Source: an uncultured delta proteobacterium (GTDB taxonomy: Bacteria; Myxococcota_A; Polyangia; Polyangiales; Polyangiaceae). Taken from it: DNA of 64,000 bases. Where the stretch lies: NCBI GenBank assembly GCA_963716725.1, contig CAVQUB010000009.1:224001-288000 (forward strand). The letters are read 5' to 3'. The notes beneath the pieces were generated by a model. The model did not search any database. It saw only the letters and a program-made list of their open reading frames with translations, and was not told the origin of the DNA. Below, one piece after another: positions 999-10,537 of the stretch (within the stretch, counting starts at the first letter, position 1; the number at the start of each line of letters is the position of its first letter). Position numbers and translations under genes: made by a program.

Positions 999-1999
999 CA
1001 CTGCTCCTCGATGTCGATGCGAAGACTCGCCCAGGTGAGCCCCGAGCCCACCACGGCCAGCACCACGGTGTGGCCCGCTTTGAGCTGGTCCCAGTGTTGA
1101 GACAGCACGATGGGGGCTCCCGCGGCGCCCGTGTTGCCGTACTGGATCACGTTGTGCCACTGCTCGTCCCAGCCGATCCCGGCGCGGCGCGCCACCGACT
1201 CGAGCACCAGCAGGTTGGCCTGGTGGCCGATGAAGTGCACGCGGCCACCGGTCTCCTTCACTCGAGCGCGAGCACCGGGCAGCAGATTCTCGAGGCAGGC
1301 CTGGGTGGTCTTGATGGCGAAGCGCTGCACGGCGCCGCCGTCCTGGGTGAAGTGACCGAAGCGAGGGATCACCACCGAGCCCGCGCCGGCGGGCGACGAG
1401 GCCAGCGTGCTCTCGACCACGCGAGCAGGCGCCGGCACCTCCGACGAGACGATGGCAGCGCTGGTGCCGTCACCCCAGAGCACGGCCGTGGCCCGATCCG
1501 CGTAGCTCACGGCGCGGGTGGTGTTCTCCGGGTTGACCACCAGCACGTAGCGCGGCAGGCCAGTCATCGACGCGAGCAGGTGCAACTGCGCGCCGAAGCT
1601 CGAACACGCCGAGTTGAGATCGAAGCCGGGCACCTCGATGCCGAGCGCCTGCGCGATGCGGCACGCCTCCGCTGGGATTTGCGCCTCGGGACAGCAACCG
1701 CCGGCCACGACCATGCCGATGTCGCTCGGCTGGAGCCCCGCGCGTTCGAGCGCGACCAGCGCCGCGCGCTTTCCGGTCTCGACGTTGGAGTAGAGCGCTG
1801 CCTCTTGGCCAGCCCGGAGATCCGCGTTCTTGGTCGCGCGGATGTAGTCGAGGGGCAGCACCGTTCGGCGCTCGCGGATCCCGACGCGCTCGAGGATCCA
1901 CTCGTCCGTCGTGCCGATCTCCAGCTCCTCGAGGAAGCGGTTGTCGACCACATTTTCCGGATGAAAATGCCCGAGCGCGTGGATGAAGAGCTTCGCCAA
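998..1999 (-). CDS. fabH: 3-oxoacyl-ACP synthase III
   Basis: TTDEWILERVGIRERR, SACSSF (Cys), HQAN (His), YGNTGAA (Asn), VGSGLTW. Confidence 0.9.
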   Translation of the reverse strand: MAKLFIHALGHFHPENVVDNRFLEELEIGTTDEWILERVGIRERRTVLPLDYIRATKNADLRAGQEAALYSNVETGKRAALVALERAGLQPSDIGMVVAGGCCPEAQIPAEACRIAQALGIEVPGFDLNSACSSFGAQLHLLASMTGLPRYVLVVNPENTTRAVSYADRATAVLWGDGTSAAIVSSEVPAPARVVESTLASSPAGAGSVVIPRFGHFTQDGGAVQRFAIKTTQACLENLLPGARARVKETGGRVHFIGHQANLLVLESVARRAGIGWDEQWHNVIQYGNTGAAGAPIVLSQHWDQLKAGHTVVLAVVGSGLTWASLRIDIEEQ

Positions 2000-2002
2000 G
2001 TC

Positions 2003-2944
2003 TCACCCCGCGATGTGCTCGCCACCGTCGACTCGGATCAACGCGCCGTTCACCCAGCGGGCCTCGTCGGTGCAGAGCAGCGCGATGAAGTCCGCAACGT
2101 CCGCAGGCGTGGTGAGTCGACCGAGGGGGTTCTTGAGGCGGGCAGCGGCCTTCATCTGCCCGCTGCCGGGGATGAGCCGGAGCGCCGGCGTGTCCGTGAC
2201 GCCCGCCTGCACCACGTTGGAGCGAACGCCAAAGGGACCGAGCTCGAGCGCCAGAGATCGAGACACCGACTCGAGCGCCACCTTGGCCGCGCTGACCGCG
2301 GCGTAGCCCCGCCAGGCCACCTCGTTGCCCTCGCTGGTCATGCCGATCACGCGCGCGTCGGCGGCGAAGAGCTCGCGGGCGAAGACGTCTTCTGCCCACG
2401 TCGCCAGGCTCGTGCCCATGCTGTACACGGTCCGCTCGAAGTCCTCGTCTTCGAGTCGAGCATCGGGATCGTAGGCCGGTGGACTCGCGAGGTGCGCGAG
2501 GGCGTCGCCCGCCTCGCCGCTCTCGGAGATCGCATTGACCGCCTCGGTGAGCTTCGCCTCGTCCACGCCAAGCCGCGCCGCGAGCTCCGCGCGCGCGCGC
2601 GCAGCGGCCGTGCCGTGGCTCTCGGGCAGCGGCCCCACGAGCTTGAGGTTGCCGAAGGCGATGGAGTGCATCAGCAGTCGCACGCGGACGTTCTTGGCGA
2701 CGAGCTCGTCCAAGACCTTCGCGCGCCCGTCCGTGGAGAGCGCGTCGAGGTTGAAGGACACGAAGCCAACGCCCGTCGCGCGGATCGCTTCGAAACCGGT
2801 CTCGATGGCCGCCATGGCCCCGCGGCGATCGCGATGCACGACGCACACGTTCATGCCGTGGCGCGCGAGCTTCTGGGCCGTTGCCAGGCCAAACCCGCTG
2901 GATCCGCCCAGGATCAACGCCCAGTGCGCCGCTTCGAACTTCAC
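2003..2944 (-). CDS. SDR-family enoyl-ACP reductase (FabL/FabI-like)
   Basis: LGGSSGFG Rossmann motif, YAAVSAAK (Y-x6-K), GVTDTPAL; located inside the fab operon. Confidence 0.8.
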   Translation of the reverse strand: MKFEAAHWALILGGSSGFGLATAQKLARHGMNVCVVHRDRRGAMAAIETGFEAIRATGVGFVSFNLDALSTDGRAKVLDELVAKNVRVRLLMHSIAFGNLKLVGPLPESHGTAAARARAELAARLGVDEAKLTEAVNAISESGEAGDALAHLASPPAYDPDARLEDEDFERTVYSMGTSLATWAEDVFARELFAADARVIGMTSEGNEVAWRGYAAVSAAKVALESVSRSLALELGPFGVRSNVVQAGVTDTPALRLIPGSGQMKAAARLKNPLGRLTTPADVADFIALLCTDEARWVNGALIRVDGGEHIAG

Positions 2945-6101: not shown

Positions 6102-7508
6102 TCACCAGGGAAACCACTCGCCCGGAACCGTCTGCCAAGCCGTCGGGCGCTTCGCGTCGTCTTCGGGCATCACCAGCGAGCCCACGAAGTCGGCGTGCTC
6201 GTAGACGCTGCCGATGTTCTTGCTGATGGCGTCGAGATCGGCGTCGCTCACCACGCCGTTGCTGGTGGCTTTGTAGAATTGCACGGTGACACGCACGGGA
6301 AAGCGCGCGTCGCGCTCCAGCTTCAACCCCGCGCCCTCGGTGAAGGGACCGCGTTTGATGCCGTGACCGATCACGGCGCGCTCGACGTCACTGGCGCGAC
6401 CGGCGCCCAAGCCCGGAGTTCCAACGCGGCCGCCGCCCTGACCAATGCCGGAAAGCCCGAGGCCGCCGGAGCCGTAGGCCTCGCCGATCCCGCTGCCCCA
6501 CGAGTACCCGTACGCTCCGCCCAACGCCCCCCGATGACGGTGCACCAACGGCACTTGGATCAAGAACATCACGTCCCCTCCCCGAGCGAGCGCGCTCTTC
6601 TCGTCGTCGTTCTTCGGACCGCCCTGGGCCTTGATGCGCGCCTCGACCTCGCTGCGGCGCTCCGCGCGAAACGCTGCGCGCTGCCCCCCTGCGTTGAAGT
6701 AGAGTTCCTGGCCGTAGCCGGCGACGCTGACCTCTTCCGCTTTGTTCTCGATGACCGAGACGCTGGTCCCCTGCCGACTGACGAGCAGCGTCAGTACCGC
6801 AGGCGACCCGGGCGCCGATTGATAGTTGAACACGACAGGATTGAACTCCGCGCTGCCTTGGGACGGGATCGGCAAGAAGACCGCCTGGGCCGCCACCAGA
6901 AAATGGGTGTCGCGCGCCGCCAAAAAGCTCCCGCTGCCCAGCACGCTGCCTGGCTTCGAGAGATAGCGACGTAAGTTGCGCAGCACGTCGGAGAGCGCCG
7001 CCGACTCCACCTTCCCGCTCGCTTTCTGGTTCCCCGTACGGACGAAGAGCCGGCTCTTCCGGATGTCCGCGGTGCGATCGCTGAAGTTCGGAAAGCGCAC
7101 CACGGGCATGACCGCGGTGCGTTCCGCGCGCCCGTCCCCGTCGCGATAGCGGACCTGCAACGTCACGTCGGAGATGTTGGGACCAAGGGCCGAACCCCAC
7201 GCGCGACCCGTGTCCTCCCAGGCCACGTTCACCAGGTCGAGCCCCCGCCGCTGAGCCCGAGCTCGAATGTTCGGGTCGTGCACCATGGTGACGACCTTCT
7301 TCACCACTTGCGCGTGCGAGGGCTCGGGAGGTGGCGCGGGCGGTGGCGCCGCCACGGTGGAGGTTGGCTGCGGCGTCGAGGGGAGAGCCGGCTGCGGTTG
7401 CGCTCGGACCTGCGCCGACGCAGGCGACGGCGACGGGCGGGGCGGAGCCTCGGCGCGGAGCGCGCACGCGGACACGCCCAAGGCCACCAGGGCCGAAATC
7501 CGTGACAT
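6102..7508 (-). CDS. putative lipoprotein of unknown function
   Basis: Lipobox-like GVSAC, Pro-rich linker, globular body and Gly-rich insert; strong GC3 bias. Confidence 0.75.
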   Translation of the reverse strand: MSRISALVALGVSACALRAEAPPRPSPSPASAQVRAQPQPALPSTPQPTSTVAAPPPAPPPEPSHAQVVKKVVTMVHDPNIRARAQRRGLDLVNVAWEDTGRAWGSALGPNISDVTLQVRYRDGDGRAERTAVMPVVRFPNFSDRTADIRKSRLFVRTGNQKASGKVESAALSDVLRNLRRYLSKPGSVLGSGSFLAARDTHFLVAAQAVFLPIPSQGSAEFNPVVFNYQSAPGSPAVLTLLVSRQGTSVSVIENKAEEVSVAGYGQELYFNAGGQRAAFRAERRSEVEARIKAQGGPKNDDEKSALARGGDVMFLIQVPLVHRHRGALGGAYGYSWGSGIGEAYGSGGLGLSGIGQGGGRVGTPGLGAGRASDVERAVIGHGIKRGPFTEGAGLKLERDARFPVRVTVQFYKATSNGVVSDADLDAISKNIGSVYEHADFVGSLVMPEDDAKRPTAWQTVPGEWFPW

Positions 7509-7566
7509 GCCCGACTCAGACAACGGCAGGCCGAAAGAGTTTCCCGCGGCACGCGAGCGCCAGGGA

Positions 7567-8436
7567 TCACGCGGCGCGCCGCGGCTTCATGGCCGACGGG
7601 TCTGATCGCGGCGCAGACCAGCGCCACTGGGGCATGAGGGGACGAACCCGCGCCGACGCGAGGCTCAGGCGGACGTCGCCCAGGCAGACGCGGACCGGGA
7701 GGGATGGCTCGCGTCGATCGACCGCCAGACGTTGCGCCGAGCGCAGCGAGAGACCGGATACGCGGGCTATCAGGCGAGAGTCCGACCAGCCCTGGTGTGC
7801 CGCCAAGCGGACAACTTCGCTACGACGCGCCGACGGCGTGGACCATGGCGTAGCGGCGAGCACGGCAGCCCGGATTGCTTCGAGGGTCGTGCTCGGCAGC
7901 TCGGCGGACGACGCCGGGGTCGGAGTTGCGGTGCCACCGATCTCGACGCTGGGGTCGCTCGACACGTAGCGGTGCAGCCACTCCGACAGGCCGCGCACGG
8001 GTCGTCCGAGTGCGCTCGCGAGTGAAGCTGGGGTCACCCAGGGATCGACCTCGGCACCCACCAGGCCGCGGTGGGTCGACCACGGCCAAGCGAGCGGATC
8101 GGCCACCAGCCCGGCGCGGCACGGATTCAGGTGGAGGTAGCGCACGCTGCGTTCGAGGTGTTTGCCGGGCGGCAGCGCCTGCGGCTCGGCGACGCGTTCG
8201 AAGAGGTGCCGCACCCCCGCCCGCACGGCCGCGACGGCCAGGATCTTCGAGAGTCGGCGGCGCGCCGACGCGGGATCCGGTACCTCCACAATCAGGTGGA
8301 GGTGGTCCGGCATCACGCACGCGGCGAGCGCACCGGTATACGCGACTCGAAGTCGCCCCATGAGCCACCATGCGGCCCGCGCGTCGGCAAAGGGTTTCTG
8401 GCCGGGCAGGCTTCGCGCGACGAGGTGAATGATCAT
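7567..8436 (-). mobile_element. REP-associated tyrosine transposase (RAYT, Y1/IS200-like HUH) with C-terminal HTH-like extension
   Basis: HLVAR, CVMPDHLHLIV (HUH), RYLHLNPCRAGLVADPLAWPWST (catalytic Tyr + NP..AGLV...WPWS). ATG at 8436. Confidence 0.85.
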
Positions 8437-8543
8437 CAGAACCCCATCGGCTCGGACTTGGGCCGGTTGCGTGCGACCTAGCAAATGATGGCTGGCGGCA
8501 GGCGCGCCGAGCCGACGTGCCGCTTCCGCGTACGCGCCTGCGT

Positions 8544-8724
8544 CACCGACCACGTCGCAACCCGCTCCGGCGTGGCGTTTGGCGTCCACAGCGACACCGA
8601 CCACGTCGCAGCGCGCTCCGGCGTGGCGTTTGGCGTCCACAGCGACACCGACCACGTCGCAACCCGTTGCCCCGTGGCGCTTGGCGTCCACAGCGTCATC
8701 GGCCACGTCGCAGCGCGCTCCGGC
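8544..8724. repeat. 51-bp tandem repeat, about 3.5 copies, containing imperfect palindromes (REP-like)
   Basis: Units start at 8544, 8595, 8646 and 8697. Consensus CACCGACCACGTCGCA(A/G)C(C/G)CGCTCCGGCGTGGCGTTTGGCGTCCACAGCGA. Confidence 0.92.
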
Positions 8725-8749
8725 AGGTGCGCGCGCCGACCCCGACCGC

Positions 8750-9487
8750 TCAGTACGCGACGCCCGAGTACGGGCACTTCTTCTGGAGCGCCGTGCAATC
8801 TGCTGGCGGCATGCAGTCGATGGTCTGTGGACAGCTCGGATCTTGCTCGCACCCACAGCCGCACTGGTTCGAGAACGCTTGGGTAGGCTCCGCGCACGCG
8901 TAGTCGATGACCTCACAGGTGCTGGGGTTGGTCGTAACGTACTTCCTCCACCACTCCGTCGAGGGATCGCAGGCGCAGACCTTGGTCGTGCACGACACGA
9001 CCTTCGGCTGCGCGCAGGAGCAGGCGTTGCAACCATCCATCGCGGGGAACTTGTCCCCGACGGCGTAGGGCTTGCCGCCGTACACGCAAGCCGGGGGAGG
9101 ACCGCAGTCCATCTCGGTGCACGACACGTCACCGCCGTCCGCGCACGTGCAGGTGTTGCACCCGTCGGCCGCCGGGAAGGTCTGCTCGGGTTCGTAGTGC
9201 TTTCCGCCGTAGTCGCAGCCCGACACGCAGAACGCGAGGGTGCAGGCCACGCTGCCGTCGGACGTGCACGAGCAGTCGTTACAGCCGTCACCGGCGGGAA
9301 AGGACTCGCCGGGCTGGTAGGTCTTGCCACCGTGCTCGCAGGTGATCCCGGAACCTCCGCCGGTACCCGCGCCGCCGCCGGCGCCGCCCGTTGCCGACCC
9401 GTCGTTGCTCGTGGACCCTCCACACGCCGCGGCAATGAACGCCACGGAAGCGGCCAGGGCCACGCGGTGTGACAGTGCTGTCGTCAT
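8750..9487 (-). CDS. Cys-rich lipoprotein with three VWC/pacifastin-like repeats
   Basis: Lipobox AAAC, Gly linker, 3x C..GGK.Y..G..FPA.DGCN.C.C....V.CT...C. Confidence 0.82.
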   Translation of the reverse strand: MTTALSHRVALAASVAFIAAACGGSTSNDGSATGGAGGGAGTGGGSGITCEHGGKTYQPGESFPAGDGCNDCSCTSDGSVACTLAFCVSGCDYGGKHYEPEQTFPAADGCNTCTCADGGDVSCTEMDCGPPPACVYGGKPYAVGDKFPAMDGCNACSCAQPKVVSCTTKVCACDPSTEWWRKYVTTNPSTCEVIDYACAEPTQAFSNQCGCGCEQDPSCPQTIDCMPPADCTALQKKCPYSGVAY

Positions 9488-9553
9488 TGGCTCACCTTTG
9501 TGCCGCCGCAGCGGCGAATTCTCGGTTCGCGCTCTAGCAATGAAAGATCCGTG

Positions 9554-9601
9554 CCGCGCTCATTGGCTCGCCGTCGACCGCGCTCATTGGCTCGCCGTCG
9601 A
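9554..9601. repeat. perfect 24-bp tandem duplication overlapping a stop codon
   Basis: CCGCGCTCATTGGCTCGCCGTCGA at 9554-9577 and 9578-9601. Confidence 0.9.
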
Positions 9602-10537
9602 CCGCGCCCGCATGGGTCGCAAGACCAGCCAGACCACCACGTCCGCGACGAGCGTCATCCCGCGCGAGAGGAGCAGCGCGGAGAGCGCGGGGGCCGGGCC
9701 GACCACGGGGACCAGACCGATGGAGAGCGCGGCCTCGCGCACTCCCGCGCCAGCGGGGGCTGCGAGCGCGAGGAATCCGACGATGGGTGCCAGGACGAAC
9801 ACGCCTGCCGCGGCCCTCGCTCCCGACGCATCGGCTCCGACCGCGGACGTCACCAGAACTCCGTGCGCGGCCCAGGTGAGCCAGTACACGACGTGCATGA
9901 ACGGAAGGCTGCGGGGGGCCAGCGGGCCCTCACCTTCGAAGCCGAGAACCCGTCGAATTCGTGGCGGGCATCGCGCACGATCGACCAAGACGAGCAACGC
10001 GATGATGACCGCGAGCGCGGGCACCGCCAGTGGCGCGTAGCGCCCCAACAACTCGCTCACGTCGCCGTTCCGGAACGCGGTGACCAGCCCCAAGCCGATC
10101 ACGCCGCCCACCGCTACGTACGACGTCAACTCGATGAGCACCGAACTGCCGGCGACCTTCGCGGGCACGCCGATGCCCCCGGCGCCAGCCATGCGCACAA
10201 CCGGGATGCCCACCTTGCCGGGCAGGTAGCGAGCGAGCTGACTCTCGGCGTGCAGCGCCACGCTCGGGCCAAACGCGACGCTGCGACAGGCCAGGCGCTC
10301 AATCAGATAGCGCCACGCCGCCGCGAGGACCACGCCGCCGATCACCAGCGGCACGAGCGACGCCGCGACGAGCCCCCAGTGGACGTGCACGGCGTTGCTG
10401 TCCCAGCGCTTCGCCAGGTCGCGGAACGCCCAGAGCACGAAGGCGAGGGCCAAGACCGACATCAGCGGGCGCAGCACTCGCTTCAGCCGATCGGCGGCGG
10501 TTCGTACTTCCGCGCTCTGCTCCGCAGGATCGGTCAC
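9584..10537 (-). CDS. lysylphosphatidylglycerol-synthase TM / flippase-like (UPF0104) membrane protein
   Basis: Multiple TM helices, SQLARYLPGKV, PAGAGVREA motifs. Start (GTG 10537) approximate. Confidence 0.78.
   Translation of the reverse strand: MTDPAEQSAEVRTAADRLKRVLRPLMSVLALAFVLWAFRDLAKRWDSNAVHVHWGLVAASLVPLVIGGVVLAAAWRYLIERLACRSVAFGPSVALHAESQLARYLPGKVGIPVVRMAGAGGIGVPAKVAGSSVLIELTSYVAVGGVIGLGLVTAFRNGDVSELLGRYAPLAVPALAVIIALLVLVDRARCPPRIRRVLGFEGEGPLAPRSLPFMHVVYWLTWAAHGVLVTSAVGADASGARAAAGVFVLAPIVGFLALAAPAGAGVREAALSIGLVPVVGPAPALSALLLSRGMTLVADVVVWLVLRPMRARSTASQ

Follow-up and report, generated by a model that had tools for sequence, protein, structure and literature searches.

In a 64,000-nucleotide stretch of DNA from an uncultured delta proteobacterium of the family Polyangiaceae (GenBank assembly GCA_963716725.1, contig CAVQUB010000009.1, positions 224,001 to 288,000; hereafter the window), a gene for a Y1 HUH nuclease stands next to a tandem array of 51-bp units. 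The specific pairing of such a gene with such repeats recurs elsewhere with many different repeat sequences. REP-associated tyrosine transposases (RAYTs; REP, repetitive extragenic palindrome) are the textbook example of a domesticated transposase that keeps a repeat population in a genome, and from the comparative sequence data we consider it probable (roughly 0.7) that gene and repeats together form a REP/RAYT-type partnership of unusual form, in which the partners of the nuclease are arrays of a cognate 51-bp module.

The nuclease gene (P0001) occupies positions 7567..8436 of the minus strand, a stop-free frame that translates to 289 amino acids plus stop, and the initial annotation of this DNA was right to see here an intact Y1 HUH gene with MPDHLH and tyrosine motifs. 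Its identification rests on the open frame, an NCBIfam match, a match to the structure of E. coli TnpA-REP (PDB: 4er8) and a single match when the protein was searched by tblastn against the whole of the window's genome assembly (G000; 7.9 Mb in 35 contigs); because this assembly is only 84% complete, single-copy status is provisional. The HUH motif, VMPDHLHLIV, contains H45 and H47 (codons H45-L46-H47 at 8296..8304, minus strand, from a reading of the sequence), and the presumed catalytic tyrosine, Y100 (codon 8137..8139, minus strand), lies within RYLHLNPCRAGLVADPLAWPWST and is also read in the stretch RYLHLNPCRAGLV. In an alignment of 32 homologues, H45, H47, Y100, N104 and R107 are invariant and the C-terminal part is conserved as well; the invariance of the HUH histidines and the tyrosine (32/32) argues for retained catalysis.

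By sequence, 4er8 is the nearest solved relative (E 6.6e-4), with Y100 aligned to the Y of its DYIYINP stretch. An AlphaFold model made from the 32 homologues (pLDDT 92.3, pTM 0.86) gave a sole Foldseek match at E <= 0.001, again to 4er8_A (E 4.9e-5), and VIA-align superposed model residues 1–163, the N-terminal Y1 HUH domain (7948..8436, minus strand), on 4er8_A with a Z of 12.4 and an rmsd of 2.6 Å over 135 residues. The IS200-type transposases come next in structure (2ec2, Z 7.5; 2vhg, Z 6.7). Residues 181–256 (7669..7896, minus strand) form a predicted C-terminal helix-turn-helix domain like domain IV of DnaA, with Z values (3pvp_A, 7.7; 1j1v_A, 7.2; 8btg_A, 6.3; 1l8q_A, 5.9) that are middling, yet mutually consistent and in line with weak helix-turn-helix profile matches: Pfam HTH_23 matches the nuclease itself at E 0.039, and among the 32 relatives HTH_29 matches 11 and HTH_23 matches nine. 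NCBIfam REP_Tyr_transpos (NF047646) matches with E 3.9e-12 and 46.3 bits, over profile positions 50–146 only and short of the curated cut-off of 80 bits; by sequence the nuclease is a distant relative of this family that stays outside it when the curated threshold is applied. Its match to Pfam Y1_Tnp is no better than E 0.16. The name of RAYT-type transposase given in the initial annotation is borne out by the TnpA-REP fold but not in its plain sense: as modelled, the protein is a long RAYT-like form with a C-terminal, DnaA-domain-IV-like helix-turn-helix. In a large protein collection the family is small, at 52 proteins with E <= 1e-5. No precomputed Pfam domain is attached to any of them, and apart from one RayT and two putative transposases most bear the name hypothetical. 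A second, unrelated Y1 HUH gene is present in the same assembly (C5:499379-499738, that is, L002 at about 1219-2649, minus strand; NCBIfam REP_Tyr_transpos E 7.5e-8); its N-terminal part has a long stretch of low complexity made of short peptide repeats, and no 51-bp array is nearby.

The array at 8540..8724, found by Tandem Repeats Finder (TRF), genome BLAST and a profile search, consists of 3.6 head-to-tail units with a period of 51 (85% matches, score 279), close to the 3.5 units of the initial annotation. It lies upstream of the nuclease gene, 103 bp from the ATG at 8436 (about 110 bp in the initial annotation); the stop codon 25 bp before its beginning belongs to the gene at 8750..9487. 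The array itself is far beyond chance, which cannot be said of the hairpin label attached to the window family. At a permissive threshold, Rfam returned no match in 7000-9500; the array is not a known RNA family. Searches for terminal inverted repeats around the gene gave weak pairs only, the best having 21 nt and 76% complementarity in DNA of 68% G+C.

This repeat is not confined to the window. BLAST against the whole assembly places arrays of the window family at 12 loci on nine contigs, and a profile from 27 full units recovers the same 12 loci plus four weak single matches (E 0.0099–0.87). A genome-wide TRF run yielded 668 arrays, of which 13 have a period of 51, nine of these belonging to the window family, and none a period of 50, 52 or 53. 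A crude GC3 test puts none of the 12 arrays within a long frame of coding character; stop-free frames of 123–193 codons, mostly the repeat itself, traverse three of them, as is expected of a period divisible by three. At 8 of the 12 loci the distance between array and stop codon is 7–70 bp, and the genes on either side are often convergent. Contigs from four public runs covering 7400-9400 show flanks identical in other studies; they break at the array and none joins across it, rare events not being visible in contigs, and summed word depth, which is not a copy number, is far higher over the array. Two contigs from RNA runs are confined to the neighbouring gene.

Homologues occur in four of the six other genomes of the genus (three in G001, one each in G002 and G004, five in G005), whereas searches of G003 (96% complete) and G006 (73% complete) yielded none. 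All genomes used, G000 among them, are drafts or metagenome bins in which repeats are under-assembled, and related genomes are not independent samples. At 8 of the 10 same-genus loci an array lies 36–116 bp from the gene. Six of these arrays (L004, L005, L006, L012, L013, L015) have a period of 51 or 52 and lie 70–113 bp away; the others are a period-40 array 36 bp downstream of the gene at L017 and a period-102 array 116 bp downstream at L007. The unit sequences vary from locus to locus, and paralogues within one genome, 35–65% identical to the query, each have a repeat of their own. Arrays of one family stand on both sides of the gene, in the same orientation, at L013, L012 and L100. Period-51 arrays also stand beside the match at two more distant loci, L014 and L011 (28–30% identity), which come from a different family in the same order.

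The distribution of the repeats follows that of the genes. Outside G000 the window family has 49 matches in G005, which holds the closest homologue with an array resembling that of the window, one weak match each in G001 and G002, and none in G003, G004 or G006. The other families are similarly restricted within the genus: the L006 family matches G001 (19) and G005 (9), the L013 family G001 (11) and G005 (3), the L015 family G005 (26) and G001 (14), and the L007 family only G004 (9). A search of the L005 family, which covered G002 only, found it at about 11 places there. In G003 and G006, the two genomes without a homologue, none of the five families that were searched across the genus has a match. 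Each family tested occurs only in genomes with such genes. The initial annotation had proposed a distinct RAYT–substrate pairing and a count of the 51-mer in the genome and its relatives. The dispersal over 12 loci, the homologues with arrays of the same period and different sequence, and the restriction of the families to gene-bearing genomes all speak for that pairing, and of the outcomes that would have counted against it, neither a repeat found nowhere else nor homologues devoid of arrays came true.

We also looked beyond the genus. In a metagenome sample of 80 loci, 15 matches have a period 51–52 array no more than 300 bp away. The proportion is 9 of 19 where identity is >= 45% and 6 of 61 where it is lower. 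In species-representative genomes (79 loci) the sole adjacent 51-bp array, at L019, is a duplicate of L015. The gene–array pairing is patchy and not universal in the protein family. Pooling metagenome and genus loci gives 24 arrays in 19 families (split at <70% ungapped identity), all with a period of 51 or 52, and arrays lie downstream of the gene at L007, L017, L103 and L105. Could an ordinary slippage minisatellite simply adjoin a transposase-like gene by chance? The single flanking array of the window and the weak hairpins of its family would fit such a history, but period-51 arrays are rare (13 in 7.9 Mb), and yet six of the 10 loci in the genus and 15 of the 80 from metagenomes have one of period 51–52 within 300 bp of the homologue, in 19 distinct sequences. 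Because arrays of this period recur beside homologues, chance adjacency is refuted as far as the comparative data allow, and we regard it as extremely improbable.

Turning to the anatomy of the unit, the imperfect palindrome that the initial annotation had named in unit 2 does exist, with overlapping arms at 8601-8617 and 8610-8626 (17 nt, 88% complementary), but the corresponding CCACG...CGTGG hairpin is not above chance and is probably not the homologous stem. The sister families L004 and L098 fold to a long imperfect palindrome, and the window unit can be aligned to both. On that alignment the likelier homologous stem in the window unit runs from CGTGG (unit positions 33–37) to the CCACG of the next unit, leaving a linker of ~16 nt that contains the best-conserved block of the family; the within-unit CCACG...CGTGG stem uses the same feet in the opposite pairing. 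Neither stem is backed by folding energy or covariation in the window family. The module would then be an imperfect palindrome of ~35 nt plus a linker of ~16 nt, 51 bp in all, a view to which the array ends described below lend weak support. Across the 19 families, hairpin z scores (40 shuffles each, preserving base composition only) are <= -1.9 in 13, and not in the other six, which include the window family.

A different use of these units has to be weighed here. The modules could be duplex binding sites, iteron- or operator-like, for the DnaA-like domain, with the protein acting as a regulator, an architectural or an initiator-like factor, the gene-side array as its own operator, and the spread and length changes of arrays left to ordinary recombination and slippage. 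Several features of the locus agree with this: the array has an operator-like position 103 bp upstream of the ATG, the period stays at 51–52 bp, some five helical turns, over 19 unrelated sequences, the window family has no significant hairpin, and the C-terminal domain resembles domain IV of DnaA, a binder of duplex repeats (PMC6006769). A protein of this kind, however, would not be expected to keep the HUH histidines and tyrosine invariant in 32/32 homologues, and strong hairpins, the hallmark of Y1 substrates, are found in 13 of the 19 families. Arrays downstream of the gene (L007, L017, L103, L105) and dispersed arrays that mostly follow stop codons, not promoters, do not suit operators either, and the DnaA-like match reaches only Z 5.9–7.7. 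We think the binding-site explanation unlikely.

Comparison of orthologous sites reveals whole-unit gain and loss, and presence or absence of whole arrays. Between L006 and metagenome locus L099 the flanks are 96% identical and the length differs by 157 bp, ~3 units (5.1 vs 8.0 TRF copies). A site between convergent genes on contig C15 has a window-family array in G000 and an L006-family array, ending two contigs, in G001; in G005 there is no array, and by BLAST coordinates some 36 bp separate the two genes. A second site, on contig C10, is filled in G000 and shorter by roughly the length of the array in G001 and G004. The gaps that G002 shows at the two sites (2.1–2.4 kb) contain no such arrays, and neither does a gap of 0.9 kb in G003. 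G000, G002 and G005 share the syntenic position of the nuclease gene and its array, and the corresponding interval in G001, G003 and G004 has no remnant of either.

These comparisons bear on whether the gene and its flanking arrays are an autonomous insertion sequence of the IS200/IS605 type that moves whole, with the arrays as its ends. Arrays of the same family on both sides of the gene at L013, L012 and L100 could be so interpreted, as could the five homologues in G005 and three in G001, and in structure the nuclease matches IS200-type transposases next best (2ec2, Z 7.5; 2vhg, Z 6.7). The shared syntenic position in three genomes and the single gene copy in G000 point the other way, as do the ~11 array places without a gene and the lack of a tnpB-like frame among the neighbouring genes. 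Paralogues in the same genome are not recent copies, since they are 35–65% identical to the query and have different repeats. A mobile element of this kind is in our estimation very unlikely.

Under the preferred REP/RAYT-type partnership, a mechanism can be sketched by analogy with the Y1 HUH enzymes of IS608 and TnpA-REP. The enzyme would recognise its own module in single-stranded DNA, and Y100 would cut it, leaving a covalent 5' link; the cut end could then be rejoined to another module or to a new site. If neighbouring modules were joined, the array would gain or lose whole units in register, and joining elsewhere would seed new arrays near gene ends, with the helix-turn-helix domain perhaps anchoring the enzyme on duplex modules or aiming it at a target. 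The period of 51–52 bp is about five helical turns, and its constancy could be inherited through in-register amplification or be set by the geometry of the complex. A bolder and rather doubtful extension holds that the strict period comes from the design of a nucleoprotein complex instead of from common descent: duplex modules would be bound by the DnaA-like domain every five turns, and the hairpins that modules can extrude would be processed by the HUH domain, so that the enzyme builds, resizes and re-spells phased arrays at gene ends, which the host may use, for example as barriers at convergent genes. If true, this would be a second, mechanistically distinct coupling of a domesticated Y1 nuclease to genome-wide repeats, and would give a first substrate to the large TnpA-REP subclass 2.1.

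A number of observations weigh against a REP/RAYT-type partnership. One is the poor folding of the window repeat: compared with 200 dinucleotide shuffles, 128 nt of the array gave a z of -0.11 on the plus strand (87/200 shuffles fold as well) and +1.28 on the minus strand (180/200), and the consensus unit of the family has a hairpin z of +0.53. Compensatory change is absent in all four candidate stems over the 24 distinct unit pairs of the window family, and as their Watson-Crick fractions are also similar (0.76–0.85 each), covariation cannot select a stem. The array ends show regularity only in part; right ends fall at unit position 33/34 at 5 of the 12 loci and within the linker at 7, and left ends fall in the linker at 6 and at positions 1–3, in the middle of the proposed stem-loop, at 5. 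(In G002 array ends are likewise variable, and single units are present.) The initial annotation had already noted that the repeats are direct, one-sided and devoid of a GTAG foot, and so it is: the array is upstream only, its units share one orientation, and GTAG is absent from the 51-nt consensus. No tag (k = 5–7, either strand) is common to the 19 families beyond what shuffles give. Copy number is low, with ~12 loci and roughly 40 units vs the hundreds typical of REPs, and the NCBIfam score of 46.3 is under the curated cut-off of 80. Nor does every homologue have an array: two of the 10 same-genus loci have none (L018, and L016, where only 231 bp of upstream sequence is available), TRF found no array of period 50–53 at 14 closer relatives in species-representative genomes (L020–L033, 34–50% identity), and 65 of the 80 metagenome loci have no period 51–52 array within 300 bp, many of them being on short contigs, too short to tell.

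The start of the nuclease and the region between gene and array need a comment. The gene call of the source collection (P0002, 362 aa) starts inside the array, 73 codons further upstream (8437-8655, minus strand). We take the ATG at 8436 as the start because 23 of the 32 aligned homologues begin no more than two residues ahead of the conserved H4; the upstream call is probably a start-site error, allowed by an array period that is a multiple of three. The 103-bp leader from array to ATG (8437..8539, minus strand), delimited from the sequence and a register print, probably contains a putative promoter and a degenerate partial unit at its array end. A promoter and terminator scan of 7400-8900 found no sigma-70-like site, and one terminator-like site (plus strand, 8762-8775), no more than shuffles yield.

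On the other side of the array, the neighbour at 8750..9487 (minus strand) codes for a cysteine-rich protein of 245 aa that looks secreted and contains pacifastin-inhibitor repeats (PF05375, E 9e-13). An animal-type serine-protease-inhibitor fold is unusual for a myxobacterium. The syntenic counterpart of this gene in G002 has a 123-bp internal repeat, and the divergent region after the gene in the window holds a perfect 24-bp tandem repeat (9554-9607; 2.2 copies, 100% identity). Elsewhere in G000, ~16 copies of a G-rich hexamer (C6:9496-9594) lie directly beside a dispersed 51-bp array at 9212-9474, with a 25-bp repeat on the other side. Three identical short arrays of period 40 and 1.9 copies, ~1.7 kb apart (C4:169694-169769, 171387-171462 and 173083-173158), suggest a tandemly triplicated 1.7-kb segment. 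Finally, an ~80-bp element at L187 4540-4621 (C10, about 129120-129201) has many matches in G003 and G004 at 89–94% identity and could be a tRNA gene or some other small repeat that is dispersed.

The clade offers a candidate substrate for the long, DnaA-tailed form of these enzymes, namely short, phased, head-to-tail arrays that differ between paralogues. Natural variation makes the question testable, through unit-number differences, filled and empty orthologous sites, and one site with different families in two species. The fixed period of 51–52 bp is an unexplained regularity. On the practical side, the arrays break assemblies and mislead gene callers.

How does this pairing compare with known systems? 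The substrates of IS200/IS605 elements are hairpins in single-stranded DNA. The nuclease has the Y1 HUH fold of their TnpA transposases (2ec2, 2vhg, 2xma) but differs in that its gene is single copy, with neither defined left and right ends nor a tnpB, and in that the structural match is weaker (Z 6.7–7.5 vs 12.4) and Pfam Y1_Tnp matches only at E 0.16.

Closer in architecture is TnpA-REP subclass 2.1 (Quentin, Siguier, Chandler and Fichant, 2018), described there as long proteins with a C-terminal extension like Bac_DnaA_C, HTH_23 or HTH_28, near whose genes neither automatic nor manual searches found REP-like sequences (PMC6006769). The same paper equates the subclass with the TIRYTs and TIRtrons of Di Nocera et al. 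(2013), whose genes have terminal inverted repeats on their flanks, GGGGWSAS being present in many (PMC6006769; PMC3733652). In architecture, the C-terminal helix-turn-helix extension of our nuclease, recognised by fold and weak HTH matches, is like theirs. The nuclease gene differs from them in having cognate direct arrays in place of convincing flanking inverted repeats or a consistent GGGGWSAS motif, for which no consistent pattern emerged at 25 loci of the clade.

REPtrons, the systems of a TnpA-REP/RAYT with its REP, BIME or REPIN partner, are the subject of Nunvar 2010 (PMC2817692), Bertels and Rainey 2011 (PMC3116915) and, reportedly, Ton-Hoang 2012 (PMC3333891). With these the window pair shares the catalytic fold and motifs of the nuclease, a single-copy, vertically placed gene and a partner repeat that is scattered between genes, close to their ends. 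Among the genus loci each paralogue has its own repeat family, and one family per tnpA-REP paralogue is stated as a rule in PMC6006769. The differences are that the window units are head-to-tail, of fixed 51–52 bp and on one side of the gene, whereas classical REPs are inverted pairs on both sides; that the window family has no GTAG tag; that its loci number in the tens, not hundreds; and that the nuclease has an extra C-terminal part of 150 residues. The initial annotation had spoken of an undescribed system, and in a literature search that left subscription journals mostly outside we found no description of phased direct arrays of 51–52 bp partnered with this type of protein; the arrangement in tandem is less new than that claim implied. 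The system appears to work like a REPtron, but three features by which REPtrons are defined are missing: it has no flanking REPs in inverted orientation and no GTAG tag, and its protein scores below the curated cut-off. REPs or REPINs in tandem have been published before as a minor form (PMC3733652, PMC2817692, PMC3116915), and for that reason the 51-bp arrays are a variant and not a new kind.

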